Positions 33,201 to 63,200 of a stretch of 64,000 nucleotides of DNA are shown here, one piece after another. The stretch's first letter is position 1. Each line of letters opens with the position of its first letter. A program made the translations under genes and the position numbers. The stretch covers positions 11,160,001 through 11,224,000 of the forward strand of contig NC_091481.1 in assembly GCF_036971445.1 (NCBI RefSeq), given 5' to 3'. The stretch comes from Narcine bancroftii. Taxonomy: Eukaryota. The notes below the pieces were generated by a model. It was not told where the DNA came from and did no database searches. It saw only the letters and a program-made list of their open reading frames with translations.

Positions 33201-35934
33201 TGCTTCTTCTGGATCCGAGAATAGTCTGTTTTGTTGTCCTGGAATAAATATTTTCAATACCGCTGGATGCTTTAGTATAAATTTATACCCTTTCTTCCAT
33301 AAAATCGCCTTTGCTGTATTGAACTCTTTTCTCTTCTTTAGGAGTTCAAAACTTATATCTGGATAAATGAAGATTTTTTGCCCTTTATACTCCAGTGGTT
33401 TGTTGCCCTCTCTTACTTTTTCCACTGTCTTCTCCAGTACCTTTTCTCTTGTAGTATATCTTAGGAATTTTACTACAATAGATCTTGGTTTTTGTTGTGG
33501 TTGTGGTTTAGAGGCCAATACTCTATGTGCCCTTTCTATTTCCATTTCATGCTGTAGTTCTGGACATCCTAGGGTCTTAGGGATCCACTCTTTTATAAAC
33601 TCCCTCATATTCTTGCCTTCTTCATCTTCCTTAAGGCCCACTATCTTTATGTTATTTCTTCTGTTATGGTTTTCCATTGTATCTATTTTTTGAGCTAGTA
33701 GTTCTTGTGTCTCTTTAGTTTTTTTATTAGATTTCTCCAATTTCTTTTTTAAGTCTTCTACCTCCATTTCTGCTGCTACTGCCCGCTCTTCCATCTTGTC
33801 CATTTTTTTTCCCATTTCTGTTAAGGTCATCTCCATTTTAATTATCTTCTCCTCTGTGTTGTTTATTCTTTTTCTTAAATCCTTAAATTCCTGTGTTTGC
33901 CATTCTTTAAATGACTCCATGTATCCTTTAATAAGAGCAAGTATATCCTTTACCTTGCCTATCTTTTCTTCTTCTATTTCACCATACTCTTCCTCTTCCT
34001 CTTCTTCTTCCTCTGGGTTGACCATCTGTTGTTTCTTTGTTGCCCTTTCCTCCTCTTCTATCTTGTTTCTATTGTCTTCTGTGGTCTCTTCTTGCTGCAG
34101 GTGTTCTGCAGCTGTCGTTGCCGGCTGTGGAGATCGACTCCCCAGCTGGTCCCCCCTCCCGTCGGTGTGTTTTTTTTCATGCGCATGCGCGGTTGCGCAC
34201 TTTTGCTCGGCTCTGCGAGCCATTTTTGTAGTCCATTATTTACCGACCTGAGGGAGCGGGTTTCTCTCTCCGCAGCGGGCCTCTTCGGACAGGTAAGGCC
34301 TTCACCTTTTTCCTCCTTTGTCTTCTCTTCCTCTCTTCTTACCGTTGCTTTCGACTTTTCTTTTTTTGTCGCCATCTTCTTTCCACCTTTATACTCACTT
34401 TTCTGTAACTTTTATTTCTGTGCCTTTGTGTTTTCTCTTGTTTTTCCCGACTTTTCTGGAGAGGGCTGGAGTTCACCGTCCGGCCACTACTCCATCGCGT
34501 GACTCCTCGAGCCCAATGAATGTTGAGGATGGAGCGGAGACAACGCTGGTGGAAGCGTTCTAGGAGCCGTAGGTGATGCCGGTAGAGGACCCATGATTCA
34601 GAGCTGAACAGGAGTGTGGGTATGACAACGGCTCTGTATACGTTTATCTTTGTGAGGTTTTTCAGTTGGTTGTTTTTCCAGACTCTTTTGTGTAGTCTTC
34701 CAAAGGCGCTATTTGCCTTGGCGAGTCTGTTGTCTATCTCGTTGTCGATCCTTGCATCTGATGAAATGGTGCAGCCGAGATAGGTAAACTGGTTGACCGT
34801 TTTGAGTTTTGTGTGCCCGATGGAGATGTGGGGGGGCTGGTAGTCATGGTGGGGAGCTGGCTGATGGAGTACCTCCGTTTTCTTCAGGCTGACTTCCAGG
34901 CCAAACATTTTGGCAGTTTCCATAAAACAGGATGCCATGCGCTGGAGAGCTGGCTCTGAATGGGCAACTAAAGCGGCATCATCTGCAAAGAGTAGTTCAC
35001 GGACAAGTTGCTCTTGTGTCTTGGTGTGAGCTTGCAGGCGCCTCAGATTGAAGAGACTGCCATCCGTGCGGTACCGGATGTAAACAGCGTCTTCCTTGTT
35101 GAGGTCTTTCATGGCTTGGTTCAGCATCATGCTGAAGAAGATTGAAAAGAGGGTTGGTGCGAGAACACAGCCTTGCTTCACGCCATTGTTAATGGAGAAG
35201 GGTTCAGAGAGTTCATTGCTGTATCTGACGATTAACTGTATCTTCCAGTTAATCGTGTAGAAAAAGCAATAACTCGATATGCAAAAGTAGGTAAACAACC
35301 AAAATCTGTAATTCCAAAAAGAGCAGTTAAGGGTTAGGTTGTAATTGAATAACCAGTATAAGAATTTTAAAAATATCTTTCCAAAATTTTTCTAACACAG
35401 AACATGACCAAACATATGAGTCAATGAAAGTCACATCAGTATTGCATCTATCACAAGTAGAGCTCATATAAGGAAAGATGCAAGCTGATTTATCTTTAGA
35501 CATACAAGCTCTATGAACTATTTAAAACCGTATTAAAGAATGACATGCGCAAAGTGAAGAAGTATTAACTAATCTAGTAATTCTTCCCCATGTTTCAGGA
35601 GATAATGTCAATTCCAGTTCCCATGTTTGTCAAATCTTATCCATGAGAACTGATCTCAAATTTAATATAAAAGTATAAATAGTACCAATTAAACCCTTCT
35701 AAAACCCTCTATCTCTTAAATAGACATTACCGTAACCAACAGTCTCCTTGTCATAAGTGAGGAAGCTGTTGTGGAACTTCAGTTGGGGAAACAAGTCAGC
35801 ACTGTTACCTCAAGGAGGCGGTCCAGGTCTTTCTGAAGCTTTTCCCTTTCCTCTGGATCCTGAGTAGCTTTGATCCTCTTCTGAAGACAAGCAACAGGTA
35901 CATCACACTGTGCCACTGCCTCCATTCCTGCCAT
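24285..35934 (-). CDS. Stand-alone legumain pro-domain protein (activation-peptide end + LSAM), 136 aa: join(35934-35809,29598-29428,27921-27854,24330-24285)
   Basis: [136 protein letters not shown]. It aligns without gaps to the legumain C-terminus as recalled (DVP..., HCFNWH, YEYAL, VNLC). Introns are GT-AG with phases 0,0,2 and no stops. The start codon is inferred (ATG 35934 or 35925). Confidence 0.82.
24598..24805. mobile_element. Tc1/mariner (Tigger-like) MITE; related copy at ~44916-45143
   Basis: TA-CAGT...ACTG-TA ends and a shared internal block (GCCAATTTTAAAC..TTGCC/TTGCTGGTTGCTT..TTGAATT). Confidence 0.5.
26455..27820 (+). mobile_element. Rex1/Babar-like LINE interrupted by a hAT MITE (27021-27367)
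   Basis: [24 protein letters not shown]. The MITE has TIRs CACTGTTCCCTC/GAGGGAACATTG and 8-bp flanks tttgtgag/tttgtggg. Confidence 0.8.
28078..28600 (+). mobile_element. tRNA-derived (V-SINE/HE1-like) SINEs; others at ~29850-30065 (-), 38610-38830 (-), 40330-40610 and 43210-43290
   Basis: GGTGGCACGG..GGTTCAA/GAATCC heads and TGTGTGGAGTTTGCA..GGTTTCCTCC cores. Confidence 0.6.
31587..35240 (-). mobile_element. RTE-clade LINE (5'-truncated), split by an L1-derived insertion; a second short RTE 3' end lies at ~31062-31229
   Basis: [42 protein letters not shown]-terminal CxxC knuckle, (GAA)n tail. 10-bp TSD TCTTCCAGTT at 31577-31586 and 35241-35250, inside an older L1/Tx1 3' fragment (~30890-35760). 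Confidence 0.9.
32106..34512 (-). mobile_element. ORF1-only (HAL1-like) L1/Tx1 derivative with intact 350-aa ORF1 (33171-34223)
   Basis: L1 ORF1p motifs (coiled coil, [34 protein letters not shown]), poly(A) at ~32104-32130, 12-bp TSD CCAATGAATGTT at 32094-32105 and 34513-34524. Confidence 0.9.
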
Positions 35935-42670: not shown

Positions 42671-43425
42671 ACAAACTCTGACGCCATTTTAAATGTAAAA
42701 ATTCACAGAAAAGCATCTGGTAAAATCAAAGTGGGAGAGTGTACGACCAGAAGGAACAGCCTCAGAATAAAAGAACATCACTTTAGAACAGAGAAGAAAT
42801 TTCTTCAGCCAGAGGGTGGCAAATATGTGGAATTTGTTGATATAGATAGCTATAGAGGCCAAGTCATTGAGTATGATTAAATTTATATTTTTTTAAAATT
42901 AAATGTTTTTTAAAAAAATATAATATTCAGCATGGGAACAGGCCATTTCAGCCCAATTAACCATCAATGAATAGAAGCTTGTTAAAGGAGAATAGGGTGA
43001 AAGAAAAAAATAAGTAACAGCAATGATTTGGATGGCACAGCAGGCCTGATTCTGCTCTGACATATTGTGGTTTAAAAGCAACAGGATTAATCAAGACTGG
43101 GTTGATATCAGTTCAGCAATAAGAAGCAAATCAGATTCAATTAGAGCACTTCCTGCTAGACCAGGGCAATTTGGTCATCAGCAGATAAGTAGGAATCTGC
43201 CACATAGTTGGTCAGCACAGTTAGTGTGGTGGTTAACACAATGGTGTTTTAGCGCCAGAGATCGGGATCGGGGTTCAAATCCCACGGTGGTGGTGGGGGG
43301 GGGGTTGCGGCAGCATTGGGTGGGGGAAGGTGAGAGGGCCATTTTGGTGTAACCCCCTCTGAATGTGTCACCTGGTGCAGTCTGCATCCTCCTAGTGGGA
43401 GTAGGAGGGATAGTTTGGGAAGATG

Positions 43426-43798
43426 TCACACAGGAAGTAGTGTAGGGGAATGGAGCTTCACCCAACTCTTATGGCTTGGAATATCAATCATCATGTCTTT
43501 GTTTTTTGGAATCAGTTGGAGAATATTTGCTTTGAGATTTCCAACCCTAACTCTCATTCCCAGGTTGGGGATGCAGCTCTCATCTCCCAGGTCTTTTAGA
43601 ATGGTATTCATAATTTTCTGAAGAAATTCTTTGTCATATTTCTGCCTGAAAGACAACAGCTCTTTCACCTGTGTTTCAACTCTGAGTAAAAGTTCTTCAT
43701 CGTCTGTGATTTTAATGATGATCTTCAGATCAGTACGGATTTCTTCAACTTGTTGAATGTTTCTTTGTCCAAGGTCACCAAGTTCATTTGCACACAAA
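43426..43798 (-). CDS. Terminal exon of the NLR: last LRR plus about 90 aa predicted helical tail
   Basis: Acceptor tgtttacag; TA|T completes Tyr to give [15 protein letters not shown] (LRR), then [17 protein letters not shown]...SPTLLPV*. Confidence 0.75.
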
Positions 43799-46700
43799 CT
43801 GTAAACATCAAAGCAATGATCTTCAGCAAATGCGTCATGCATATATAGCCCCCAAAAATTATTTTCTGACCACCAAATTCTCTTTATGGCCCACGCCTAA
43901 AATTCTAAAGGGAGATCATGGTCACTGCTCATGCAGATGTTTGGAAAAATTTCTAACTGCTCACTCTTGTTGCTCTCTCCTGTGCATGCACATGTAGATA
44001 TTTTATGTTCAAGTACAATTTTTTTTAAAACTGTTATCCGGAATTCAAGCAACTGGAAAAAATCATTGCGGAAAATAGGTAAAAAATACGCAAGTTTAAA
44101 ATTGACGCACCTCACCATTGGTTCACCAGTGACGAACACACATTCTCAAGCAACCGAAAAATTCACTTATCCAGCATCTACCGATCCCCAGAGGCGGCAG
44201 ACACTAGGGGTTTTACTATATTTATGACTCCCTTTTGAAAATAAATTTGGAATCCACAGCATGTTCAATATAAATTTCCCTAATTTCCTTCCATTTTTTG
44301 TAAACCATCTGAAATCTGTACTCTCTGAATACCAACCTTCCTGCCAATAGAAACAATTTTGTCCTTTATGCTCAACCAATTACCAAACCAGAGGAGAGCA
44401 GTCTAAAAGGGTCCTGTCCCACAGATCTGCTATTTCCCTCCTTGGATGCTGCCCGACCCAATGAGTTCCTCCAAATGCTCATTTTATTGTTCCAATTTCC
44501 AAACCTCCATCCATTTTCATTATATTAAATCAAGAATATACCCAATTCCTTTAAAATGCATCAAGAGGCTTTGATAGATAAGTGGTTAGAGCACTGGCAT
44601 TTTTAAACCAGGGGTTGTGAGTTCATTCCTTGCTGGGGCCTCATTTCTGTGAGGGGTGCTTGACAAAGTGGCAACTCTCTGTCTTCCTTACAGTAGACAA
44701 AGTTAAAGTATTTCATGTAGTATTAGGTGACAATAATGGAACCTTTATCTTGTCAGCCACTAATAGTGACACTGAATCAGCTCAACAAGAATACTTTCTC
44801 AATTCTTGCTCCTTTCTGCTCCTCACAGTGAAAGCACAGAACACTTATGGACTGGTCTGTAATACCATTTGTTCTTTGCATTTTATGACTGGGAAAGGAG
44901 AAGAGAGTCACGTTTGCAGTGAAACCCCCTGTATTTGGCACCTATGGGAATTGGTAGATGCCCGATAAGTGAATTTGCTGGTTGCTTGAGATTGCATGTT
45001 GCGTGGATTTGCAAACTAATTGCTGGGGGCGCCAATTTTAAACGTTTATATTTTTTACCAACGGGTATTTATTTTCCGTGATATTTTTGCTGGTTGCTCG
45101 AGGCTGCCAGTTACTTGAATTCCAGATAATGGGGATTTTACTGGATTGTGTCTCAGACTCAGTAAAGTCAATCATTTGTACACAAATACATCATTGAAGG
45201 GATGTTTCAAACAAACTGCATATGCATAGGTCCATCCAGTTACTTACTAGAGTTTCTGGAGAGTTTTGTTGCAAGTCAGGTACCGATTCATATTTTTTGT
45301 GCCTTCATCCATGATTTTATTGTCATATAAACGAAGGACTTTGAGACTTTGGTTATTCGCCAGAGCTTCCCAAAAATACTGAGCTCCTGTGGAACCAAAA
45401 GAGTTTGTTCCACACCTGAAAAGCAGAATCAAATGTCAAATGTCAGGGATTAGATTTCCTATTGAAATTTGAACAGTTTTATACGAAGATGTATGTGATA
45501 AAAATTCTCACGATAATGTCTCAATCCTGCATTCTGGGTTTTGAAGGATATTACTCAAAATCTTTGCTGAGTCCTCTGTCAGTTTGTTGGAGCTTACCCT
45601 AGAACACAAGACAATGAGAAGAATTAGAGTTGAGTATCTGCGTGGAGAAGAACTCCAGTCTCACAAACTGCTGATGGAGGGGACTGCCTTAAAAGTAAAC
45701 ACTGGTTCTTCCAGGAGAGCAAGGTTTCTAACCCCTGTCTAACAAGGAACATTTCTATATTATTTATGATTTTTATGAAGAGAGGGCACCTGAGGTTGAT
45801 GTGAAACCACCTTCAAATGGTTCCACTCTGTTACTGCAACGTGGAACACACAAAATCAATTTGAATTCAACAATTGCTTACAATATGTAAAAGTGATCCA
45901 TTAAGATGCAGGGAAATTGTGACATGCACTTGAACAAAGGTAAAACGATGGCAGAACTCCAATTGTTCTTCTTTTAGATATTTATTCTGTGGGTTCTGCC
46001 TTTCCCTGCCCTCTTACAAAGAGGAATATGGAAAAGAATAATTCAGATCAAATAGTACTTTCCATGTATTCATATTTCCCAACTAATGGTTACTTTTGTG
46101 GTGTTTGAAGGTAATCCCACAGTCAATGAGCACAGCAAGTGGCCATTGGGACTTGATTTGATTTGGGAAGAAAAAAATGAGACTACCCATTGTCTCTGTT
46201 GTGCTTGAAATGAGGTGGTGCAAGATTTACAAATAGACTGTACCTGCTACCTGCGCTTGCAGCAAGCAAAGTATCTTTACAGCGATAAATAAAAATCTCT
46301 ACAAGCAACAGCAAATAGAATCAATCCCCTTCACACACAGCATGGTTATGCCACCAAGAATGGACAAGGATAGGCACATGAGAGAACAGAGTAACAGATG
46401 CAGTTAATTGCACAAATAATTTCCAAAGAGCCTTGAAAAGTAGCATTGTGATGTGCAGATGCCGACATTAGTCAAGACAGAAAAGAATCAGGAAAGGTAG
46501 GACAAAAAAATGTCAAAATGTAGAATAAATCACAAAGGAGAACAAACATAGGGTATATAAATGACTGAAACTAAAGCTTAATATTTTAATGAAAATCATT
46601 ACTCACAAAAGAGTTCTGCATTTGAATAGTACATCTTTGAGCTGTTTTATTCCTTCATCTCTGAGCCTGCAGAGTCTCAAATCCAACACTTCCACTGTGG

Positions 46701-49700
46701 ACTGACTGAGACAATAGCATAAAGCAGACACATCTAGTGGGCTCAGAGGAACATTGTGAAACTCTATACGTTTGATGCATGGAGATACTTCAGTTGTGAC
46801 AATTGGATCATGCAGTTCAAACAGGCAATGGATCAAATTCAGCAACTCTGCCTGCTTCAAGTCTTGCTCAAGGCTGTTCTTGAACCAAGTGATGAGACCT
46901 CTGGCTGTCGAAGGAGTGAGAGGACTTGTAAAATCCCACAACTTGCCATCTCTTCTTGTTGTTAAAAAGCCCATGAGAAACTTGGTAAAATTGTACAGTT
47001 TCTCTGTATGTTTCGGTTGAAATGATTGCAGATAAAATTGGCTCATTTGATTTTTAGGCTTTTTCCCAAAACACCAAAGGTTCAAACATTTGACCAACTC
47101 ATCAGTGTCATCATTGAGTGAATTTGCACAATACAATGCTGCAAATTGTTCCTTTAGCATGGTGTGGCAGAATGCAAAGGATCCTTGATCTTTACACAGA
47201 TTTTCCAGGATCAGATGTGAGAATTGCTTTGAAAGCATGCTTTGGTCTATTTCATAGGTCTTCAGATCAGCTGCACTAATTTCTAGCTTGCCTGACAGCA
47301 GAGTGATGAAGGAGTGTTCCCCAACTTTCAGGATGGTGTGTTTAAACAGTTTTCTCTCCAGTTCAGTCTTGTCAGTAACTGTGCTGCAGTTAAACAGACT
47401 GTGAAGTAACAGTGAAAAAACTTTGGTACTTGTCATTGGTGCATTTCCTGTCACTTCCTGACTGCAGAAACAACTGCCCAAACTCTTCAAAATATTGCAC
47501 AGAATGTAACTGTTAAGGGGATTATAAGCCATGCACTTGATGCTCTCATTCTCCGTAATGGACAGATACATTTCTTCCGCTTTTTGCTTTTCCCCACAGA
47601 ACACTTCACAATATCTTCTCAATTGATCATTGGTAAAACTAGAGATAACAAAATAGTAATCAAAATGAGACTTGTTAAATTCTATCTGCTTGGTATTCCA
47701 CCGTGTCGTAACCAACACGAATGCTTCTCGGAGGAGATTCCCGGATATTAGTTTGGCCACAAGGACACTTACTTCAGCTTCACTGTCCAGGTTAAAATCA
47801 AAATCTGATGGATGCCATTGCAGCTGATGGTTGAACTCATCGAGACCATCCAAAATGATCAACACATCCTGACAATTTTGGAGAAGCTCCATTAGGACTG
47901 AGGACAAAGGCGGGCACTGCTTCGTTAGCAGTTCCCGGAGAGTGGTCTTTCCTTTGACTCTGTTCAAGTCAGAGAACCTGAGAACGATGACACAGCTCAT
48001 CAGGTGCAATGGATGAGACGCCCACTCTTGCTCTATACTGTCCACAGTCCAGCTCTTCCCGATCCCTGGATCACCTAGCAGCAGGACTCTCTTTGTGTAC
48101 GTGGCTTTCTGGAGCATGGACAGCAGTTGTGAAGCTTTCATTTCACTCTCAATATTCAAGTTTCCTTTCTGGATAAGGTCATAGTCTGGGTCCTGTAGCT
48201 TTGGGGAGATGACATTAATGGATCTGGCAAATGAGGAGCTGCTGAAGTTCCCTTGCATTGATGCATAACATGAATGTGCTTGGTCTTTCAAGATGTATTG
48301 TTTGTAATTCTGAATGGCAGCTGAAAAGAAAGATACATTTCTCAGAATGATTATGTGTTTTATTATCTTGGATGAATGAAGTGTAAGAAATGCAGAAATC
48401 AGATATGAGCATCAAGTTGCTAAGTTACCCTAAGAAACCCTACATTTTAATGATCATAGAGTCCTATTGAGGCTGGATATGGTTTCTGAAAGGAGTAACT
48501 ATAATCAGTAATGGCCTTTAATTTCTTGTCAAAATACAGTCATTCTCAACCAGTGGGCCATATCTTGTTTGGATGTGGGTCTTTAAAAATGTTCAATAAA
48601 ATATTTAAAATTAGATAATGATGTGTTTCTTACATGTGATGTTTCTTTTATTGTAATAAATAAACTTGGGTTATTTTAAAACAACTCACTCAAGACCGTA
48701 TGGAGGCATCCATCTTAAATCATCCTTAGCTGTAACCAACTAGTCTCTGGCTCCTTCTAGTGGTCAGGAGGATCACTAGCACTCTATCACTACATCCCTT
48801 TTCCTGGAGATGTTTAATCTAACAACATGACACACTAATTCAGTATTCATTTCAATTTAAAATTCAATAAAAATATAAACAAACATCAGCAGCATAAACT
48901 TTTTAAGTGTACAGTTCTTTAGTTTTAAAGATTCACCCTGTCAGGTGCCTTGATAATGCCTGTGGATCATCTTAACACAAGGGCTTGTGTTGGCTCTGCT
49001 AGTCTAGCACTGGTAGTGTTTCCTCTGTCACTGCGTAGGCTGCATCTTCTGCATTTGTCTGTTCCTGCAGTGCCTCTTGTGTTTTCAGCAAGCTCTTTCA
49101 ATTCCTTCTAAGTATTTGACCATCCTCTGTTCTGACAGTGTAGGATCTTGGAGATACTTCCTCCAGACAGTAGCCTTTTTGACCCATGTGTTGGAATCTG
49201 TGAGTCTCACTGTGTCATGTAATGCCAGTGGCCCTAAGCTTCTTGCTGATTTGTCATAGTTTGCTTTTTGTCTCCATTGCAGATGCTTTTGTTTCCATTT
49301 GACATCTTCGACACCTCTGTTCTTGTTTGCGCCTGCAGAGTATGGCAGTGTGGTGTGTGTCTACGTCCCATCAGAAGCTAACTGCAATGTGACTCAATCG
49401 AGCTAGGTAAGGATCTGAGCAACTGTCTAATGCTTACTTGAGCAACTGTTTAACTACGTAAACTCCTTTCTCTGCTTTACCGTTTGACTGTGGAAGCAGA
49501 GGACATACATAGCATGTAAAAAATTATGCTCTTCTGCAAAGTTCTAGAATTCTCTACAGCTATAGCATGGTCCATTATCACTGTGGACAATTTGAGGAAT
49601 TCTATGTCTTGCAAGAATTTAACTGGGAAATTGATCATTCCCAGCACTTTCAATATGCCTTTTTTTGTCAGTGGGTCTGAGCATCTCTAAAATTGCTTTC

Positions 49701-52700
49701 ACCTTACTCCTGTCTGGCACCACACCTGCCTTTGACAGTTTATCTCCCAGAAAGGTGATTTCCTTCACATCAAACTCTGTTTAACTTTAATCTGTAGCAG
49801 CAGCTACACTGCTCCTGCAATAACACATGCAACTAGACGGGTTGAGGTCAGTGAGCAGACTAGTTTATTACAGGCTGCTGGGCTGCACTTATAGTCTCAG
49901 CCCAGACCTGGCTGAGAACTGCGCTGGAGGGCGCTGACGTCGTCTGGGCATCATGTGGTCCCCAGTGCAGGTTTCTGAGCCCTGAGCTGGAAGGAAGGGA
50001 AATCCCCGATGGCACCATTTTCACATGTTGTGGCCCAGCCCGCGATCTGCTTCTGCAGTCCATGCCATATGAACCGTTCTGCCACCATCCAGACCGTGGA
50101 CCTGATGGACGGATGTTTAAGGTTGTGGATGTGACCTGCCTGCGTCACTGCTGCGGAACCACTGGCCACGGGGTGCCCAAGGAGATATCACACAGGATGG
50201 TGCCTTTGCCGCTCGGAGTCGGGAGGTCTCGGAACTGCAGGCCGGTGATGGCGGTCTTGAACGCCCTCGTCTCCTCATCAGCTTCCTGGTCCCGGGCGAG
50301 CTGGTTGAAGTCGAGGCCAGCCGTCAGCGCGCAGATGGCCGGTTGCGAGAGTGCATCGGCAACCACATTGTCCTTCCCTGCCTTGTGCCGAATGTCGGTG
50401 GGAAACTCTGACACGAAGGAGAGGTGACGCTGCTGGCGGGCCGACCAGGGATCGTTTGCCATCACGAGCGCCTGGGTGAGGGGTTTGTGGTCCGGTGAAG
50501 ATGGTAAAAGTCCTCCCCTCCAAAAAATAGCGGAAATGCCGCACCACCCAGTAACTTGCGATCGAAGGCACTATTCTTGCGTTCCAGCAGGCGGAGCAGA
50601 CGGCTGAAGAATGCCAGTGGCTTCCAATGCCCATTCACCTGCTGCTCCAGGTCGGCACCGACGGCTGTGGCAGAGGCATCGATAGAGAGTGCCATATGCA
50701 GGTCAGTGTGCAGGTGGGCAAGCATGACGGCCTTCATGAGGGCATCCTTGGTGGCCTTGAATGCGGTGCAGGCTTCTGGGTTCCAAACGAGCATCTTGTG
50801 CTTGGCTGCGATGAGGGTGAACAGTGGCGCATGATGCACGCAGCTCCCGGGATGAAGCGGTTGTAAAAGTTGACCATATCCACGAACACCTGCAGCCCCT
50901 TGAGGTTGTTCTGGCGTGGGAACTCCCTGATGGTGGCAACCTTCGCAGCGGCGGGCGTGCCTCCTTCGGCCGTCATGTTATGGCCCAGGAACTGCATGGA
51001 CTCTTTCTCAAACTGGCACTTGGCCGGGTTGATGGTAAGGCCGAAGTTGGCCAGCTGGGAGGAAAGGCCACGTAGGTGGGCCTTGTGTTGCGCCCAGTCC
51101 TTGCTGGCGACAAGGATGTCGTCCAAATAAATAAAGATGAAATCCAAGCCCACAGAGTCTGTGAGGCGCTGGAAGGTCTGAGCAGCGTTCTTGAGCCCGA
51201 ATGGCATGCGCAGGAATTCGAACAGGCCAAAGGGGGTAATGATGGCCGTCTTGGATATGTCCTCAGGGTGCACCGGGATCTGATGATATCTGCGCACCAG
51301 GTCAACCTTGGAGAAGACCCTCGCGCCGTGCAGGTTGGCTGTAAAGTCTTTGATGTGAGGGATGGGGTAACGGTCAGGAACAGTTGCCTCGTTGAGCCAT
51401 TGATAGTCTCCACAGGGATGCCAGCCGCCGGAGGCTTTCGGGACCAGGTGGAGTGGCGAGGCCCATGGGCTGTCGGTCCGCCGAATGATCCACAGCTCCA
51501 ACAGGTGCGAAAACTCCTCCTTCGCTACCAGGGCAGTGACCACATGGTAGAATTTGGTCATGTTGGATGAAATCTGGTGGAGGTGAAACTGGGCCTCCGT
51601 GTGGACAATCCAGGTCTCTGGCTCCTGTACCCAGAATTCAGGCAGTTTCACAGATATAGCGCTGATCCCAGGCTCACTCATGATGGGTTCAAAGACATTT
51701 GAATAAGTCGGGGTCACCAATTGTAGCAGTGGCTACACTGCTCCCACAATAACACACGCAACCAGATGGGTTGAGCTCAGTGAGCAGACTAGTTTATTGC
51801 AGGCTGCTGGGCTGGACTTATACTCCCAGCCCGGACCTGGCTGAGAACCGTGCTGGAGGTCATCCGGGCATCATGTGGTCCTCAAGCTCGGGTTTCTAAG
51901 CCCTGAGTTGGAAGGAAGGGAAATCCCCAACGGCGACAATTTGGCCGGCTGCCCCGCCGTGTGGCTTACAAGCGGGGCTGGTTCGCCTGCCTTGTGGTGA
52001 GCCGCCACAAATCCAAACTTCTGGATGCGTTGTAGCACTTTGATGAGCCTCTCGTTGTGTTGTTCCTGTGTGGATCCCTATAGGATCATGTCATCCATGT
52101 ACACATGTACCCTATTTATGTCTTCTATGATGTCCTCCACTGTCCTGTAGAACATTTCCGGAGCTGAGGAAATTCCAAAAGGCATTTTCATACAGGAATT
52201 TCAGACAAACAGTGTATTAAATGTACAGTATTTTGTGCTATCTTAGTGCAGTTTTATTTACCAGAAGCCCTGGATGCATTCAATTTGGTGAAAAACTTTG
52301 CACTGGCCATCTCGCTTGTAATTTCATCCCTGGTTGGAATCTGAGTATTGGCATTCAAGTCTTTTGAGTCCATGTAGGTCACCATTCTTCTTTTTGACAC
52401 ACACCATTGAATTCACCCATTCTGAGGGCTCCTCCACTTTCTTTATGTCCCCTAGTGATGCCATTTGGTCAGGTTCCTGCTTAAGGAACCTGTCTTGGGG
52501 CATGCTCTACTGGCTGCACATTCTCCTTTAACTGTATCTTATAGGTGAATGGTAGAACACCAAATCCCTTGAAGATGTCTGGAAATTTATCCAGTATTTC
52601 CTGTACATTATTCCGTGCATTGGCCCTGTTAATGCGTACACCCTCTTGACTGGGCTAAAGTTTTCACATGCTTTGTCACCAAGCAGCGATTCATGTCCAT

Positions 52701-55700
52701 CTGGGACTATTGTGAACCTGAGGTTGTGCTCTTTATCTTTAACTTTCACCTTGAGTTTATGTGTACTTTTCGTGTCGAGGCTCTGTCCATTCTAGGCTTT
52801 TGAGCTGTACAAGATTTGCATGGATGTATAGCTTTATCTTAATTGCCCTGATGTTGTGCTCATAGATCAAATTGACCTTTGCCTGTGTCCATCTTGAAAG
52901 GAATATGTTTCATTTGTATGGAATCCACTCGTCCTGTTCGATTCTGTTCACACTTGGCTCTTTCAGTCTTTCTACACTACCATGCCCACAAATTGTGTCA
53001 CTGAGAGAAGTTTCTTCTATAGAGCGTACAATGTGCACGGTTCCACTTCTGTTTTGTTTCCCTTTTGAAAAACATCACTTTGCATAATGATTCTGCCCTT
53101 TGAATTTATTACAGACCTTTTCATAGGCAGGGCATTGTTTTGGCGTATGTTCTCTTACAAATGAATGTCTCTCTTTTTTGTTGTTTCGTATGTCTCATTT
53201 TTTTGTATGTGTGGGTGGACATATACTGTGGCTATGGCTATGCCTTTGTTTTCACTGGCTTTTACACTCTCACCGAAACATTTTGCATATTGCAGAGCTA
53301 ATTCACTGGTGTGGCATATCTTCACAGCTCCAGCTAAGGTAAGCTCTGTTTCTCACAGCAACCTCTCTCTTACTTACCTAACAATAATCCTGAACACAAT
53401 TTGAATACAGATCATTGAATCTTGCAGTGGTCCAAAATTACGTTCTTGCTTTTAATTTCAAGTCTGTTAAAAAAGTGTCAAAGCTCTCTCCCTGCAGCTG
53501 CGTGTGCAAGCAAAACATGTACCTCTCAAACGTTTCATTTTCCTTTGAACAGTGTTCATCAAACATCTTGATAACCATGTCAAACTTGCCCTGATCTTCT
53601 GCCTCAGCAAAAACAAATGTATTGAAAACCTCTAGCTTGAGCTCCCACCATGGTAAGTAGCATTTCAATCTTCCATGCATCATGTTTGCTATCGAGTCCA
53701 ATGGTTCGTAGGAAAGGCATGAATCTTTGTTTAAACAACCTCCACTCGTGGTTGACATTTCCAGTTCAATTTACACCATCAGGAGCACTCATATTTTCCG
53801 TTTTTCTGCTGCAATTGACTGATTCTCACTCTGCACATTCCTGGTGTTTCTTCTACTCCTGGTACCATGTGATGTTTCTTTTAATGAAACTTAGGTTCTT
53901 TAAAAACTATATTAACTAAAAATCTCACTCAGGACCATGTGGAGGCATCCATTTTGAATCATCCTAAACTGTAACCAACTAGTCTCCAACTCCCTCTAGT
54001 GGTCAGAAGGATGACTAGCAATCTATTACTACATTATGGAACTGCATTTACCTTGAAAAATATTGGTCAGTCATTGCCATTTCTGGGCCATGGCATGTTA
54101 GGCCAGAAGCCAGGTGGGTCTTAGACCAAAAAAGGTTGAGAATGACTGGTTTAAACATTACAGGATTTAATTGATATTTTGTATCTTCTTTCTTTCAAAA
54201 TTCCTCATTCTTAAAATTTATATTCATTATGACCATATTCTAAAAACTATTACTATTTCATCCTTACTGAAGATTAATTTGATGGCTGATTCCAGAAGTG
54301 GAAAAGGAGGCCATTTTTACTGTTGTTGGTAGAAACTATTGCATAGACAAGCTTAATAAAAGAAAATACTCAATAAAGATCAGCTCTTTACCTTTTACAC
54401 CATCTCTCAATAAACAAATCTCTGGAAAGAAAAAGCACAAATTAGAGTCTGTTCCTCTCAAGGAATGGCACATGGTGTAGGTGGAATGGTCTCAGACTAC
54501 TTCCTTGGTGGGGAGTGCCATATACGTTCAGTAATAGCAGCAGCAGATTCTACATGACCATGTACGGTAAGTAACAATATTGATATTATTGACCAGTCCA
54601 CCACAACACTCAAGATACACTGACAAAAGAAAAAGAAATAACATTATTATGTGGACCTAATAGCCTGGGTCAGAGTCTGCAGTAGTTTGATGTTCCATTT
54701 ACTTAAGTATCTCAGTATTAATGGTTCTTGCTTCCTTTCTCTCAAATGATTAGTCAGGTGCTGAACTTAGATCTGCTTTTAGGAGGCTTACGTCCACAGC
54801 CATATTAACTCTTGGATTTCAACTCAACCTTCAGAGAAGATATAAAAAGAATTGTGGAACGCCAAATGCTTGTATTGGTAATGGGAAAATTACTTTGGCA
54901 ATAGGAATGCAGAATGAAATCATAACTATAACGTATGTCAAATATATACACATATATCTTGCTAAAGACAATTTTCTTGGTTGATCAACTAACGTCACTG
55001 AATCAGTCTGTATTTTACACTTTTAATATTCACCACTTTTTAGCTATCAAGTTCTAAATTTGTGTGAGAAGCACAAGTAATGATTTTCAGATTCATGTTT
55101 TTGGAGAAGATTCTTCCCAAACATTCGATTTGTACCTAACCATCATGTAGTTTGTGTGGCGACCTCCCAATTTTCTTGAGCATTTTACTCACCCTCTTCA
55201 AGAGCTGGTCGCTTCTTGTTTTTTATTTTCCAATGTAAAAATCCACCTGCAATTAGAACAATCAGCCCTGCAGGTCCAACGACATAAATTAGGCCATTGC
55301 CATTGATTCCATTTTGCTGTGTGATATCTAGGATGGTTGGATCAAGAAAGACCAAATGATGAAAGTGACCCCAAAGGAATGGAGCTAAAACATAATCACA
55401 AGACCGTCCATTCAAACAGATCTAGTTAAGTCAAACTTTATTGTCATCTGATTGTACAAGTACAACCTGACGAAACAGTGTTCTCCGGTCCTCGGTGAAA
55501 AACCGACATAACCCACATACAAGCAATACATATGCAGGACAGGTATTCATATATACAAATAAATAAATAAATATTGCTTCAGAAATATGAGAGTCTTGAA
55601 TAGTTGGTGTGAGCAGTTCCTTTGGTCATTTGGCGTTCTCACTGCTGTTTCTCAGCCTGGTGGTTTTGCCTCTGATACTCCTATATCTCTTTCCCAATCT

Positions 55701-58636
55701 ATGTGCAGGGTTGAAGGGGTCCTTAATGATTTTCTGCACCCTCTTCAGACAACAATCCTGCTACATGATACTGGGTGGGTGGGGGGCAGGGGGGGAAACT
55801 TTAGTGATCCTCTCTGTCGCTCTTATAGTCTTGTGGATTGACCTCCAATCTATTTCTCTGCAGCAACCATGCCACACTGTGATGTAGCCAGCCAGGATGC
55901 TCTCCATAGAGCTCCTGGTAGTTATAGTAATGTGTACACGATATAGTTAGTACAGTGAAACCTTGTTAGAATGCGGTTGTTGGGGTCCAAGATTTCATAC
56001 CCCATTACAACCGAGTCGTGGAATAGATGCATATATGTGGCTGGAAACCCACCAAAGCGGTTACCATCTTTACTGCCTCCTCAGTTCAGGAACCATTCAT
56101 ACCCAGTCGAGCCTCCATGTAGTAAAAGTGCAGATATTGTGGTTGAAGTAAAAACACAAAGTTGGTGAAAATGAGCAGGTCAAGCACTTTCATTTATAAA
56201 GTTTGGGCTCCACAGACACTTGCACTATAAGCGATTCTGCGGATTAACGAATTGCATTCTAACAAGGTTTCACTGTATTTAGAAATAGGATTGCTAAAAT
56301 CTGGAATGCAGTTAAGTAAAATTAGTATAAGCCAAAGTGTTATATTTAAGCAATGTTGTAAAAATGCTATAGGGTTATGGCCACCTTCTCCAAAGTAAAA
56401 TATGGAACTCAACAAATCTTTGAGCAGTCATTTTATTTTCAGTCACAAGATGTCATGCACTCACCAAATAATTTCAGTTCCACTGTGTTCTCTACCTGGA
56501 ATATTCCTTCTTCATCAACAACATAGCAAGTGTAGTTACCCACATCAGATAACGACATTGCATTTAACTTTATGCTCGCATTCCCTTTGGGTAATTCCAT
56601 CAGAAACAGCTGACTGCGGCCTCTATAAGTTGGGTTTTGGTCTTCTGAGTGATCCAAACCAGAGTAGAAACTGTGAACCACAGCCTGACTGTATGTCCGC
56701 TGCCACGAAATGACCAGATTGTTCAGATTGACCCAGGCTGCACTAGGGAAGGTGCAGGGCATGATGACATCTTCATTCAATATCCCATAGGAGATCGAGA
56801 AAGATGATGCACCTAGCGAAAATATAGATAGTTAAAAAGTGCATGTTACATTGGAGGGAGGGGGAAGTGTGACAGTGGAGCATGGTGGAGGTTCATGGCA
56901 GATAGGCACCACCCCCCTCATCTAAGCCAGTTTTCAAACATCAGATTGTGCCATCCGTGTAACCCTAATTAGATTTGTTCTGACGCCGACCCTGAAGATA
57001 CATAACCAATGTTATGGGCTTGAGCCCTTCACTAGGGTATGAGCAAAATTGCAGAAAAATTAGAGGGGCAGAGGGAGCACAGTCCCACAGGCAGAAGGTA
57101 GTGGTGGATAAGGGTGGGAAGGCAAACCTGCAAACAGGGGGAGGGGGGATGGGGGATGGCTCTGTGAATAAGAGGAAAGGGGTGGAGAGCTGGAGAAAAG
57201 AAGACAGAAGGATGGAGAAGAGAGGAAACTGGAGAAATCGACATTAATACCATCTGATTGGAGAATGCCAAGACAGAAAATCAGGTGTTGCTCTTCCAAT
57301 TTACGGGAGGCCAATGTACTATGAGACCATGTTGTCAGCGCAGGAGTGGGACATAGAATTGAAATGGTTGACCACTGGGTGATCCCTGTCTCTGAAGCGG
57401 ACAGAGCAAAGATGGTCAGCGAAGCAATCTCCCAGTCTGTGTCCAGTCTCTCCAATGTAGAAAAGGTCACAACAGGAGCACAGGATTCAGTAGATGACTC
57501 TCGTGGATATACAAGCAAAGTGCTGCTTCACTTGGAAGGATTGTTTAAGGGCCCTGAACAGTGGTGAGGGAGGAGGTATGGGCGCAGGTGAGGCACTTTC
57601 TGAGGCCGTGGGGAAAGGTGTCAAGGGGGTGATTCATAGGAAGGAATAAGCTGACAAGGGAGTCAGAGGGAGAGGTGAGGAAGGCGGAGAGATGAGAAGA
57701 AGTGAAGATGTGTCTGGTAGTCGGATCATGTTGAAGGTAGTGGAAATTACAGAGGATAATGTGCTGGAGGCTGGTAGTGAGGAGAATGGCCACAGGGAAC
57801 CAACCACTATATTCTTACTTCAGTGGTCATCCAACTATCTGCACCCTGAGCCTTGGGTATGATCACCTCACTCTAAAGGTGATCTATTATCTTCTCATAT
57901 CATCTGCAATTCATCCACCTGCAGCTGCATTTACCCAACATGGTCAGCAAAGAGCTGCACCATGCCACCTTCCCACCCCCACTTTCTCTCCCCCACCTTC
58001 CCTCCTCCCACACCACCACCTTCTCCCTTTCCCCCACCCTGCCACCTTCCCTCCCTCCACCCCTTCTTCCCCCACCCCGCCAACTTCCCTCCCTCCTCCC
58101 CACCCCGCCAACTTCCCTCCCTCCACCTCTTCTCCCCCCCACCCCGCCACCTTCCCTCCCTTTTCCCCTTCTCTCCAACCCGCCACCTTCCCTCCCTTTC
58201 CCCACCCAACACCTTCCCTCCCCAACCCCAGCACCTTCCCTCTCCCAACCCTGCCACCTTTTATCACCCCCACCCCACCACATTCTCTCCCCCCCACCCC
58301 ACCCCACCCCATCACTGACCATTTCTCACCACGACCCTGTCCCACCACCCCCTCCACTTGCAGACAATAGAGACACTGGAATTCACAATGATATCCCACA
58401 TCTTGCAGGATAAGCAAATCCCTGCCCTGATTGACATCTCTACTGTACTTCATCTGAAAAGATGAAAAACAACACTGAACCTGTCAGCCACTTTCCACTC
58501 ACTTCCGTTATTCCAGGTGCTGTACAACCTGTAGATAAAAAACCCGGCAAATACTCCCCAGAAATGAACACTCACCCAATTTAAACTCCCTGAAGAGAAA
58601 AAATGCCCACAGCAGCTTGTCCAAATGATGACCCAT
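43426..58636 (-). CDS. Transmembrane NLR: signal peptide - B7-type IgV - TM - NACHT - LRR - helical tail, 971 aa: join(58636-58576,56812-56465,55327-55193,54421-54392,48320-46607,45598-45512,45415-45248,43798-43426)
   Basis: Exon lengths 61+348+135+30+1714+87+168+373=2916 nt give one open frame. Every intron is GT-AG; phases are 1,1,1,1,2,2,2. Confidence 0.8.
44572..44745 (+). mobile_element. tRNA-derived SINE in an NLR intron
   Basis: A-box TAGTGGTTAGAGC and B-box GAGTTCATTCC in a tRNA-like head, followed by a non-tRNA body. Confidence 0.5.
45248..45598 (-). CDS. Two RI-like LRR exons (45598-45512, 87 nt; 45415-45248, 168 nt)
   Basis: [28 protein letters not shown] and [55 protein letters not shown]. 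Phase 2-2 with 28-29 aa periodicity, typical of NLR LRR exons. Confidence 0.88.
46607..48320 (-). CDS. NACHT exon (NBD, HD1, WHD, HD2 and first LRR)
   Basis: Walker A GDPGIGKS, Walker [11 protein letters not shown], sensor-1 LVTTR, NPL and [23 protein letters not shown], then [19 protein letters not shown]. Phase-1 acceptor tcttttcag; phase-2 donor TT|gtgagt. Confidence 0.95.
48635..54033 (-). mobile_element. Degenerate Gypsy LTR retrotransposon A
   Basis: LTRs 48635-48794 and 53868-54033 (TG...CA), PBS TGGTACCAGGAGTAG next to the 5' LTR, PPT near 48795-48803, gag remnant ([22 protein letters not shown]) and decayed pol. Confidence 0.85.
49793..52009 (-). mobile_element. Internally deleted Gypsy retrotransposon B nested in the RT of element A
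   Basis: 5' LTR 51722-52009, partial 3' LTR 49793-~50020, PBS TGGTGACCCCGAC, 4-bp TSD AATC. Gag N-terminus (VKLPEFW..PETW..EAQF) is fused to RT ([31 protein letters not shown]); RNase H remnant follows. Confidence 0.9.
54392..54421 (-). CDS. 30-nt juxtamembrane microexon (E)ICLLRDGVK
   Basis: Strong polypyrimidine acceptor gctttttctttccag, donor AAG|gtaaag, symmetric phase 1-1. Confidence 0.65.
55193..55327 (-). CDS. Transmembrane exon: [45 protein letters not shown]
   Basis: About 20 hydrophobic residues followed by a basic stop-transfer cluster. Acceptor atcctag, phase-1 donor G|gtgagt, no stop codon in the exon. Confidence 0.85.
55953..56275. mobile_element. Tc1/mariner-type MITE between the IgV and TM exons
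   Basis: 22-bp TIR CAGTGAAACCTTGTTAGAATGC with TA flanks. Confidence 0.8.
56465..56812 (-). CDS. IgV exon, B7/butyrophilin-family type (CD276/VTCN1/HHLA2-like)
   Basis: [21 protein letters not shown]....Q...[19 protein letters not shown]....SDVGNYTC. Canonical V-set Cys/Trp and DxGxYxC, with B7-type VVHSF, YRGR and GNAS motifs. Phase 1-1 exon of 348 nt. Confidence 0.92.
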
Positions 58637-59350
58637 GGCCCTAATAAGCAAAAATTAAACAAGTGGCATCTTTGAGCATCTTCCCTGCTCCCTTCTCCCC
58701 CCACCCAGCCACTGCTCTCCCCACCAATCTTCTCCCCGCTCTCCCCTGCCACCACTTTCTCCCACATCGACCCCCACCTCCCTCCTCCACCATCCCTCTC
58801 CTCCACCATCCCTCTCCCCCACCACCCACTCTCCCACCACCCTCCCCTCCACTCCGCCACCTTCTGGAGTGCAGTGGAGGTGTAGGAAGTGAAACAAAGA
58901 ACAATCAGCTTCTAGCAACAATGATTTCTGCACAAACTCACGATTTATTTTTTGTCATATTCTTCCAATCCCACTCTTTTGTCTGGACACTGGATTGCAA
59001 CTCGATCAAACAGTTCCATCTCAGCACTTTTAAATGGGTTTCTTGTTCTTGACAAGAAACTGCAAAGGGAAACAAGCTCAGGTTTGCCAGGTGACCTTGT
59101 ACATGTACAGGGCATGCCCTGTACTTAATGGTTTTGACTTTATCAGGATGCCTTAAATGTCCTGAATTAAGATTTTACACCCCACCCTCTCCTCTCTCCC
59201 CACCACCCCACCCTCTCCTCTCTCCCCACCACCCCACCCCCTCCTCTCTCCCCACCCTCCCCACCACCCCACCCCCCACTCTCCCCACCCCCCACTCTCC
59301 CCACCACCCTACCCTCTCTCCTCTCTCTCTCTCCCCCCCCCCCCAACACC
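57960..59350. repeat. C-rich low-complexity tracts (57960-58350, 58680-58860, 59180-59350)
   Basis: CCCACCCC/CCTTCCCTCC repeats; source of spurious Pro/Gly ORFs. Confidence 0.8.
58576..58636 (-). CDS. Leader (signal-peptide-like) exon of the Ig-TM-NLR gene: [20 protein letters not shown](G)
   Basis: Acceptor ttattag at 58641-2, Kozak GGCC-ATG-G, phase-1 donor G|gtgagt. It joins to (G)ASSFSIS of the IgV exon. The hydrophobic core is short, so signal function is only moderately supported. Confidence 0.62.
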
Positions 59351-59580
59351 CCACTCTTTCACCTTCTTCCGGAATGCACCAGAGATCTGGGGAGTGCAAC
59401 AAAGAACCGTCATGTCATATCGACGACGATTTCTGCACAAACTCACGGTTTATTTGAGTTCACAAGAATGATCTTCTCCCCTTCTTTTGTCTGGACACCG
59501 GACGGCAGCTGGATCGGGCTGTTCCCCCTCAGCCCTTGTCACCGAGTTGTTGACAAGAAACTGCGAAAGTGAAAGCAGAT
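58860..59580 (-). promoter_or_regulatory. Tandemly duplicated candidate promoter / non-coding exon 1 of the Ig-TM-NLR gene with IRF-type motifs
   Basis: 58860-59075 and 59365-59577 are diverged copies. Each has a gtgagttt donor (exon ends 58942 and 59447) and an upstream GAAA-repeat element: GAAAGTGAAAG at 59565-59575 and AAAGGGAAAC near 59064-59073. GGAAGTGAAAC at 58885-58895. Confidence 0.55.
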
Positions 59581-60259: not shown

Positions 60260-63200
60260 GAGAGGAGTCACGTGATGGAGTCGTGGCCAGTTGTGGAATA
60301 CCAAGCCTCTCCAGAAAAGAAGTAATAAAGTGAAGAAAATACAAAGTTCAATATCAAACACAACAAATAAAAGATAAAGTTGTAGAGAACAAAAAAATGG
60401 CACCCAAGAAGGAAAAAGTAAAAACAACGGGAAGAAAAGACGCCGGAAGAGAAAGGAGAAGAGAGCCCGTTCTCCGAGGTGGGTGATGACCCTGCAGAGT
60501 CGCGACCCCCCCCCCCCCCCCGACTGCTGGACTGCAAAAATGGCTCTCTGACCCAAACAAAAGTGCGCAGTGCACTGACTAAGGAGAACACCGACGGGAG
60601 GGGAGGCTCAGCCGAGGAGTGGGCAAACACAACTCGGCCGAGGGATGCTCGTCACCAGGGGTCTCAGCTAGAAGAAGAGGAAAGCGACAGGAAAGGGAGT
60701 GAAAGGAAAAAAGAGCAGCAGCAGGAGGCCCAACAGGTGAGTAGCCCAGAAGAGGCCAAGCAAGAAGCCCAGCAAAGTGAGGCAAGCAACTCATCAGGAA
60801 AGTCAGAAGAGACACAGATACAAGGCAGAGAAGAAGAAGACACAAACACAGGTACAGACACAGAAGAAGAGGAAGAAGAAGACCAAGATCTGCACAGAGA
60901 AATAGAAGGTAAAATAGATGGACAGAATAGAGATTTAAAAAATTTTCAAGAACAAATGAGAGCATTAAAAGAATGGTTGACATTAGAATTTAGTGAAATG
61001 AAAAGAAAAATGAAAAGTACAGAATAGGTTAAAGCTGGTCATGACAGAAATAGGGAAAAGTTTAGAAAATGTGGAAGAATGAGAAACTGTTGTAGAAATG
61101 GAAGTGAATGACTTAAGAAGAAAAATGGAAGAAAGTGACAAAAAAGATAAAGTGTCACAAGAGTTGTTAGCTCAGAAAATTGATATGTTTTTAAAATTGT
61201 TGGAAACAACATAAAAATAGTGGGCCTAAAAGAAGATGAAGAAGGCACAGGTATGAAGGAATTTATAAAAGAATGGATCCCAAAGGTCCTGGGAATGACA
61301 GAAATACAGGAAGGAATGAAAATAGAAAGTGCACACAGAACACTAGCCCCGAAACCACAGACACATCAAAAACCAAGATCCGTTTTAGTAAAATTTTTGA
61401 GAAAACGACAAGAGAAAATATACTGGAGCGGGCAAAGAATAAAATTAGAGAAGGCAATAAACCATTGGAATACAAGGGTCAAAAAGTATTTTTTTTACCC
61501 AGACATAAGTTTTGAACTCTTAAAGAAGAGAAAGGAGTTTAATACAGCAAAATCGATCCTATGGAAAAAAGGTTATAAATTTATGTTAAGACATCCAGCT
61601 GTGGTTAAAATATTTATACGTGGGGAGCAAAACAGACTGTTCTCGGATCCTGAGGAAGCATGAGAATTTGCAGAACACCTGCAGGACAGGAGGAGAGATG
61701 AAGAGTTGTAACAAGAATGAAGAATGGTGATAAAATATATATAAAGATGTAAAAATAATGTATATGTAAGAACTAAAGAAGGGAAGAAAGGGAGGGGAAA
61801 AAAGAGGGTGAACTTTGTTATATGTGTAAAAAAAAGTATTTTTGTGGGGGGGATTGGGTGCGAGAGAATAACCGTCACTGCGAAATCAGTTGACGCTTGC
61901 GAGCAGGTTCGCAATCCAAATGGAGAGGGGAGTTGTGGTTGCCCGGCAAGGGATAAGTGGCAACTCAGAGAGGGGGGTGGGGGGAACATTTGGGGCTAAG
62001 GGAATATTGGATGTGGGAGTTGTTGAAGTATTTTATGTATTAAATGTGTTGTCATACATTGAGTTTGAAAAGGGAAGACTGAGAGATGAAAATGGGGAAA
62101 AGGGGTGGTGGTGAAGAAGTGGAAATAAGGTGTAAACAGGATATGAGATGGCCATATTGAACTATATGACTATATGACTATAAATATTAATTGAATACAT
62201 AACCAAATTAAACGGAAGAAGCTGAAAAGATAAAAAAAATAGACATAGCATTTGTGCAGGAAATGCATCCAACTGAAGTGGAACATAATAAATTAAGGAG
62301 AGACTGGGTAGGACACGTAGCGGCAGCATCATATAATTCAAAAGCTAGAGGTGTAGCCATATTAATAAATAAAAATGTACCAATCAAAATAGAGAAGGAA
62401 ATAATAGATCCAACAGGGAGGTATGTAATGATAAAGTGTCAGGTATACTCAGAATTTTGGAATTTGCTCAATATATATGCACCTAATGAAGAGGATCAAA
62501 ATTTTATGCAAGTTTTTTTTAAGATTGTAGATACACAGAGGAATATATTGATAGGAGGGGATTTTAACCTTCATTTGGATAAAACTGAACAAAAGACTAG
62601 CAAAAAGAATAAAGTAGCCAAATTTATGGTTAAATCAATGCAGGAAATGAAACTTATGGATATATGGAGGAGGCAGCACCCAAGGGAGAAGGAATACTCA
62701 TATTACTCGAGTAGGCATAAAACATACTCAAGGATTGATATGTTTTTGTTGTCAACCCATATTCAAGGGAGAGTAAGATAAACTGAAAATAAAGCAAGAT
62801 TGCTATCAGATCATTCACTTAAAAGGCAGAAATTTAGAGAGTTTATTGAACGCCAAATTAAAATGTACATTGAAATAAATACGGAATCAGTGAAAGACAA
62901 ATTTATATTATGGGATGCAATGAAAGTTTTCATTAGAGGGCAGATAATAAGTTATGTAACTAAGATGAAAAAGGACTATAATCGGGAAATAGAATAGTTG
63001 GAAAGGGAGATAGTAAGCACAGAAAAGGAACTAGCAACAAAGGATGATATAACAAAAAGAGATTTGGCGGACAAAAAAATAAAACACGAAACATTACAAA
63101 CGTATAAGGTGGAGAAGAACATAATGAAAATAAAGCAAAAGTATTATGAACTAGGAGAAAAAACACACAAAATATTAGCCTGACAACTTAAAACAGAACA

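Follow-up and report, generated by a model that had tools for sequence, protein, structure and literature searches.

We describe here a gene of the ray Narcine bancroftii that encodes a membrane-spanning NLR with a B7-type immunoglobulin ectodomain. The gene lies on the minus strand of a 64,000-nucleotide (nt) stretch, referred to below as the window (RefSeq assembly GCF_036971445.1, contig NC_091481.1, positions 11,160,001 to 11,224,000); coordinates are counted from its first letter. One frame runs through a leader, a variable-type immunoglobulin (IgV) domain, a single transmembrane (TM) helix, a NACHT ATPase, leucine-rich repeats (LRR) and a helical tail, and both the gene and this architecture are nearly certain. 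The usual teaching is that vertebrate NLRs are soluble sensors of the cytosol and that B7 proteins are co-signalling ligands at the cell surface. The protein described here belongs to a real, expressed and ancient family of single-pass B7-IgV/NLR receptors in jawed vertebrates, one that has apparently gone undescribed. Its functions are inferred throughout from the observed gene, splicing, architecture, conservation and motifs.

Splicing of eight minus-strand exons gives 2916 nt, that is, 971 residues and a stop codon. All seven introns are GT-AG, and the four from the leader through the NACHT exon are each in phase 1. This recomputed frame bears out the preliminary description of this DNA, which had reported eight exons with canonical splice sites and one 971-residue frame, and it equals the RefSeq model: the product is identical to XP_069765698 (P0038, 978 residues, Narcine bancroftii) minus 7 N-terminal residues, which are encoded by an additional exon whose end is at 58942. 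The automatic name of that protein is "NACHT, LRR and PYD domains-containing protein 1 homolog". The exons are the following:

58942-58958, minus strand: coding end of the further upstream exon of the RefSeq model, adding 7 residues before the ATG of the 971-residue frame
58576-58636, minus strand: leader exon, signal-peptide-like, with acceptor 58641 and a phase-1 donor; orthologues also have a hydrophobic N-terminus
56465-56812, minus strand: B7-type IgV exon (Pfam V-set, PDB matches, RNA)
55193-55327, minus strand: stalk, single TM helix, basic stop-transfer cluster and the acidic residue of a dileucine motif (RNA, hydropathy)
54392-54421, minus strand: 30-nt microexon, phase 1-1, supplying the LL of [DE]xxxLL (both joints in 4 of 4 RNA runs)
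46607-48320, minus strand: NACHT exon, with nucleotide-binding domain (NBD; Walker A, Walker B, sensor-1 Arg), helical domain HD1, winged-helix domain (WHD) with its His, HD2 and the first LRRs
45512-45598, minus strand: LRR exon, 87 nt (RNA joints)
45248-45415, minus strand: LRR exon, 168 nt (RNA joints)
43426-43798, minus strand: last exon, with the final LRR, a conserved three-helix tail (residues 889-950) and the stop codon

An alternative acceptor of the TM exon at 55384 is in frame, but RNA and RefSeq both use 55327. The NACHT exon is single-copy, the next-best of 27 own-genome matches in a strict first look being only 28% identical. A tandem duplication of about 505 bp (58833-59040 and 59338-59548, 71-74% alike) spans the upstream exon and its donor, possibly providing alternative first exons.

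The RNA evidence comes from four runs of one study (X1-X4), compared as Logan contigs with positions 43200-57500 only; the leader-to-IgV intron lies outside this stretch. The runs were typed as RNA by an automated guess, and reliance was placed on their GT-AG joints; the contigs are assemblies and not single molecules, with rare forms dropped. Six introns separate the IgV exon from the last exon, and all four runs skip every one of them (joints 56465>55327, 55193>54421, 54392>48320, 46606>45597, 45509>45412 and 45248>43798), including the 6071-nt intron that holds two nested Gypsy-type elements. The second and third of these joints are those that the preliminary description had singled out as a check on the fusion. 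It had also considered that the IgV-TM exons might have an ending of their own and the NACHT exon its own 5' exon. In two of the four runs, however, a single contig starts in the IgV exon and reaches beyond the stop codon (X1/1, 3893 nt; X2/5, 5143 nt), with 0 letters differing from the genome in the pieces listed. A single X4 contig starts at the TM exon and continues onward, and in X3 the path is divided among three contigs. The joint between IgV-TM and NACHT is as deep as the NACHT exon itself, and among the joints listed there is no alternative one into the NACHT acceptor.

Read-through of the IgV donor meets a stop codon within a few codons (56464-56437), and AATAAA occurs at 56437 and 55442. 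Intron 2 (55328-56464) is entered by locus-specific contigs of low depth, 4-27 versus 140-724 where the intron is spliced. There is a faint possibility of a secreted decoy isoform made of IgV alone.

The ectodomain is of the type found in B7 proteins and butyrophilins. Pfam V-set matches residues 39-141 (E 1.4e-8); the cysteine pair is C47-C123 and N-glycan sequons lie at N105 and N120, all four in the 978-residue numbering. The best PDB sequence matches are CD276 (41 bits per domain), VTCN1 (E 4e-16), MOG, PD-L1 and BTN3, and structural matches to ICOS-L, B7-H3 and PD-L1 have Z of 17.4-18.5 with root-mean-square deviation (rmsd) of 1.6-3.0. The domain is single-copy in the genome and B7-ligand-like. 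Its sequence type and type I topology are shared with CD276, VTCN1 and BTN3A1, and a short phase-1 cytoplasmic exon ahead of a large cytosolic domain is common to butyrophilins and the ray gene. In contrast to that group, where IgV is followed by IgC and a short or B30.2 cytosolic part, the ray IgV is spliced straight to the TM exon without IgC, and the cytosolic part is a STAND ATPase.

Signal peptide and TM calls were made from hydropathy. The helix spans residues 156-174 (Kyte-Doolittle 2.27) and is followed by 5 Lys/Arg within 12 residues; it is the only segment to exceed 1.6, the best later one reaching 1.58. Because of the cysteines, the sequons, the helix and the basic cluster, the sequence argues strongly that the IgV domain is extracellular or luminal and the NLR part cytosolic. 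A segment of at least 1.6 between IgV and NACHT is present in 18/18 elasmobranch and 15/16 bony-vertebrate proteins. Of the elasmobranch members 17 of 18, and of the bony-vertebrate members 10 of 16, carry the motif [DE]xxxL[LI], an established AP-adaptor sorting signal, no more than 30 residues past the helix, where shuffles lead one to expect 1.04 and 0.74 (overall 27/34 versus about 1.8). It was also found in 5 of 5 further scorable proteins (8 tried; one was the alligator gene already counted). The linker that bears it is otherwise only about 22% identical between lungfish and sharks.

The cytosolic part has the NBD-HD1-WHD-HD2-LRR core and intact motifs of NOD2, NLRP3, NLRC3 and NLRX1, as well as the gene layout of the NOD/NLRP class, in which a single large NACHT exon precedes LRR exons in phase 2. 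Pfam NACHT matches residues 276-437 (E 1e-24) and NLRC4_HD2 residues 584-704, and LRR_6 is also matched; Walker A and B, sensor 1 and the WHD His are all in place. The repeats occupy about residues 716-882 of the predicted structure (pLDDT, a per-residue confidence score, about 90) and match ribonuclease-inhibitor-type LRRs. The whole model has a mean pLDDT of 72 and a pTM, a global fold score, of 0.57, with NOD2 and NLRP3 as the closest solved folds. Unlike the NOD/NLRP class, and unlike the NLRC, NLRP and NLRB proteins that are soluble and begin with CARD, PYD or BIR, the ray protein begins with a signal peptide, IgV and TM; its LRR is short and it falls in a clade of its own. The earlier statement that no PYD or CARD exon is recognisable upstream stands: Pfam gave no death-fold (PYD, CARD) or BIR match at E<=1 on the ray protein, and no CARD, PYD or death domain was found in any family member scanned.

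Among 22 aligned members, Walker A GK[ST] is kept in all, the sensor-1 Arg in 18 and the WHD His in 19. Between lungfish and elasmobranchs the LRR is the best conserved part (43% identity), followed by IgV (41%) and NBD (37%). In the alligator proteins P0225 and P0070 the Walker A lysine motif is lost, yet IgV, TM, dileucine motif and LRR are retained; judged by its sequence, the alligator member is a predicted pseudo-ATPase in the lineage next to birds.

For the LRR and tail (model residues 703-941) the top structural match is NLRX1, 3UN9 (Z 23.8, rmsd 6.2, 220 residues aligned), with which the three terminal helices also align. Sequence comparisons do not show the tail to be homologous to that of NLRX1: its score is reached by 105 of 500 shuffles and the hhalign probability is below 1%; for the whole last exon against ray NLRX1 the score was reached by 1/500 shuffles. 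NLRX1_C (PF21402) matches only another contig. Folded alone without an alignment, the tail has a pLDDT of 50 and gives only generic helical matches (best Z 9.1).

The preliminary description had proposed a search for the V-set, TM and NACHT combination across proteomes, and the outcome is an ancient gnathostome family and not a chondrichthyan one-off. The first protein search returned 14 elasmobranch proteins of 55-100% identity, 12 of them with a precomputed V-set match; the remaining two are P0004, which matches V-set weakly, and P0010, a short isoform of a protein that has the domain in its long form. Profile searching of 1.84 billion representatives extended the family to gar, coelacanth, caecilian, newt, several frogs and alligators; the snapping-turtle member is a partial protein, and lungfish came from the protein searches. 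V-set, NACHT and HD2 all match at E<=0.001 in lungfish, gar, coelacanth, caecilian, newt, three frog proteins and alligator, and the full order of signal peptide, IgV, TM, NACHT and LRR is present in these groups and in sharks and rays. About 14 further family-like representatives appeared in the profile search, of which 11 fall among the amphibian rows of the larger tree described next; P0099, P0110 and P0185 lie outside the set placed in it.

In trees built from NACHT alone, the family forms one clade with a branch support (SH-aLRT) of 100, comprising 37 of 60 rows in one tree and 12 of 32 rows in the other; both were made by a quick method with SH-aLRT support only. Branching within the clade matches the species order (elasmobranchs, gar, lungfish, then a coelacanth-plus-tetrapod group). 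The clade is separate from the NOD1-, NLRC3-, NLRC5-, CIITA- and NLRX1-like exons of the ray, labels that are our reading of the sequences with only NLRX1 anchored by Pfam; NLRX1 is a long branch. Because one clade in species order reaches from sharks to alligators, the IgV-TM-NACHT fusion would be older than the split of sharks and bony fishes. The sister group (SH-aLRT 99) consists of soluble NLRs of frog, shad, sturgeon and coelacanth; its frog member has a CARD match (E 4e-5), and the helical tail recurs in the frog, shad and sturgeon members (9-14 bits versus shuffle maxima of 2.5-3.6). The tree thus suggests that a CARD-NACHT-LRR-tail NLR had its CARD exon replaced by exons for a signal peptide, IgV and TM, which fits the earlier proposal of exon shuffling through phase-1 exons. 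Word-limited searches with gar (6 matches) and alligator (12 matches) queries gave no teleost, bird, squamate or mammal orthologue, and no member from chimaera, bichir or sturgeon was recognised; provisionally, the family may have been lost in teleosts, birds and mammals.

Paralogues occur in coelacanth (P0072, P0073, P0093, P0224), Discoglossus (P0066, P0214, P0215, P0061) and newt (P0060, P0219), unlike the single copy of the ray; some have adjacent model numbers, which suggests tandem arrays. A second Ig-TM-NLR, P0138 (XP_069757801), is predicted in the same ray genome (G000:C22:88537314-88565852, plus strand). Its layout is IgV-IgC1-TM-(C1-like segment)-NACHT-LRR, with collinear exons that have AG/GT at their edges, and its NACHT falls outside the family clade. 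This suggests an independent fusion in a predicted gene; if so, the Ig-TM-NLR design arose more than once in vertebrates. In the teleost Neosynchiropus, P0242 is predicted to carry Ig-TM and then FISNA-NACHT-LRR in one protein, and is either a third fusion or an annotation merge.

Outside vertebrates the combination has been seen before. The sea cucumber proteins AjNLRC4 and AjNLR-new combine one or more Ig domains with TM and NACHT in a single membrane protein; AjNLRC4 is without LRR and is reported to mediate phagocytosis (PMC8699970, PMC13133943). Its arrangement of Ig outside and NACHT inside is matched in the ray protein by hydropathy, Lys/Arg bias and sequons. AjNLRC4, however, has two Ig-type domains, two TMs, an NLRC4-like label and Ig in place of LRR, whereas in the ray protein there is a single B7-type IgV, a single TM, a NACHT of the NOD/NLRP type and a helical tail, its LRRs are kept, and the sister group of its family is vertebrate CARD-NLRs. 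The two nearest ESM Atlas clusters are likewise echinoderm V-set and NACHT proteins (scores 0.92 and 0.90). The likeness to AjNLRC4 is probably convergent; the trees had no echinoderm rows. The membrane-bound NLRs of anthozoans, reported as specific to that group, share an N-terminal membrane anchor with the ray protein, but it is a region of 3-4 TMs and there is no Ig ectodomain (PMC3879445). No Ig- or TM-bearing vertebrate NLR appears in main-text portions of the whale shark paper (PMC8455134), nor did term searches of a 2025 fish NLR review (PMC12436146) and a bird inflammasome survey (PMC11258412) retrieve one. A literature search, with subscription journals outside its reach, found no description of a vertebrate Ig-TM-NLR. 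The claim that the architecture is unknown in vertebrates therefore holds for the literature found, but unnamed RefSeq models exist across gnathostomes and AjNLRC4 is a precedent elsewhere. What is new is the vertebrate, LRR-bearing, B7-type, single-pass form; the domain combination has invertebrate precedent.

The main question then is in which direction such a protein signals. We tentatively favor, at somewhat less than an even chance, an inside-out mechanism, in which cytosolic sensing clusters or exposes a B7-like ligand. The one gene encodes a type I membrane NLR with an IgV that is very probably luminal or extracellular, one helix and a very probably cytosolic NACHT-LRR with three-helix tail. 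NACHT and LRR would act as an autoinhibited cytosolic sensor-switch, as in other NLRs, and the [DE]xxxL[LI] motif may keep the resting protein in endosomes or cycle it through them. On activation, ATP-driven oligomerisation of NACHT would cluster the N-terminal module, here TM-IgV instead of CARD, and clustering with altered trafficking would present a B7-like ligand in multivalent form to lymphocytes or other cells that bear a counter-receptor. Oligomerisation of an NLR brings together its N-terminal domains, which are the effectors, and BTN3A1 passes a signal from the cytosol on to gamma-delta T cells; the logic proposed is similar to that of BTN3A1, with an NLR in place of B30.2. This mechanism is ranked first because TM-IgV fills the effector slot, there is no cytosolic death fold and the LRR is the best conserved part. 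The conserved Walker A, sensor-1 and WHD residues, the closeness of IgV to B7-family ligands and the dileucine motif also speak for it.

Several observations weigh against it. Walker A no longer has its lysine motif in the alligator member, and the sensor motifs of some frog paralogues are degenerate; the nucleotide switch would therefore be dispensable in some members. RefSeq predicts isoforms without IgV or without TM (P0010, P0013, P0015, P0063), and the dileucine counts come from related sequences, not from independent events. AjNLRC4, the only analogue that has been characterised, is reported to work outside-in: Ig binds bacteria, and the receptor oligomerises and is internalised (PMC8699970).

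A serious rival, though less probable, is that the ray protein works in that direction, with IgV binding a microbial surface or a cell-bound counter-receptor and causing NACHT oligomerisation, dileucine-dependent uptake and signaling, for which it would use either surfaces of NACHT or the tail, or a helper NLR with a CARD, in the manner of NAIP with NLRC4. A type I layout is typical of a classical receptor, the endocytic-type motif is conserved, a CARD-bearing sister clade has the same tail, and the AjNLRC4 precedent points the same way (PMC8699970). The cytosolic side, however, has no effector domain, the LRR is kept and conserved, and a single-copy, B7-ligand-like IgV is not a diversified microbe-binding repertoire. 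Nor was a CARD sister-clade member seen among the 27 own-genome matches of the strict first look, 10 NACHT exons of which were placed in the 32-row tree.

A further serious rival, less probable still, is that IgV, TM and dileucine motif are an address label for a modulatory NLR resembling NLRX1 or NLRC3, which on endosomes or phagosomes detects leakage or damps signaling, IgV having only a folding or trafficking role. NLRX1, too, is without a death fold and ends in a three-helix tail, its structure is the top match to the LRR and tail, and the sorting motif is conserved. But NACHT does not group with the long-branched NLRX1, the tail alone is not detectably similar to that of ray NLRX1 by the shuffle comparison above, and the conservation of IgV, which equals that of the ATPase domain across about 450 million years, suggests a binding partner. 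It is very improbable that two adjacent genes, one B7-like and one NLR, were joined by read-through or annotation: the RNA is from one study and assembled, retroelements lie in the joining intron and low-depth contigs enter intron 2, but the joint is in all four runs at the depth of the NACHT exon, with no other joint into its acceptor among those listed, and sharks, gar, coelacanth, lungfish, amphibians and alligator have the same fusion.

The earlier proposal of a type I receptor with a B7-like Ig fused to NACHT is thus upheld, both in the spliced contigs and in the conservation of the family among jawed vertebrates. A single-pass protein that combines NLR and B7 has persisted for about 450 million years, from sharks to alligators, with an expansion in frogs. 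It brings a further class of receptors into the immune system of ancestral jawed vertebrates, at the point where adaptive immunity arose. Under the inside-out mechanism, NACHT oligomerisation exposing IgV to lymphocytes would link innate to adaptive immunity without caspase or NF-kB, in an ancient and overlooked class apparently lost in teleosts, birds and mammals; we consider this a reasonable possibility, clearly short of even. The system is testable in amphibian models and provides a naturally evolved design by which NLR activation could be coupled across a membrane.

Within intron 4 lies one further feature:

48633-54034, minus strand: two nested decayed Gypsy-type long terminal repeat (LTR) elements with an RVT_1 match, spliced out by joint 54392>48320

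The outer LTR-like pair (about 53866-54034 and 48633-48795) is 76% alike and the inner pair (51722-51942 and 49793-50020) 84% alike; the inner element has an apparent 4-bp target duplication. The only other gene recognised in the window, in less than a full scan, is represented by a tetraspanin exon at 5704-5865 (minus strand) with TSPAN15 as best PDB match, which we take to be TSPAN33-like and which can serve as a synteny marker. Remnants of long interspersed elements, with reverse transcriptase and endonuclease Pfam matches, are located at 31644-35391 and 60400-62800.

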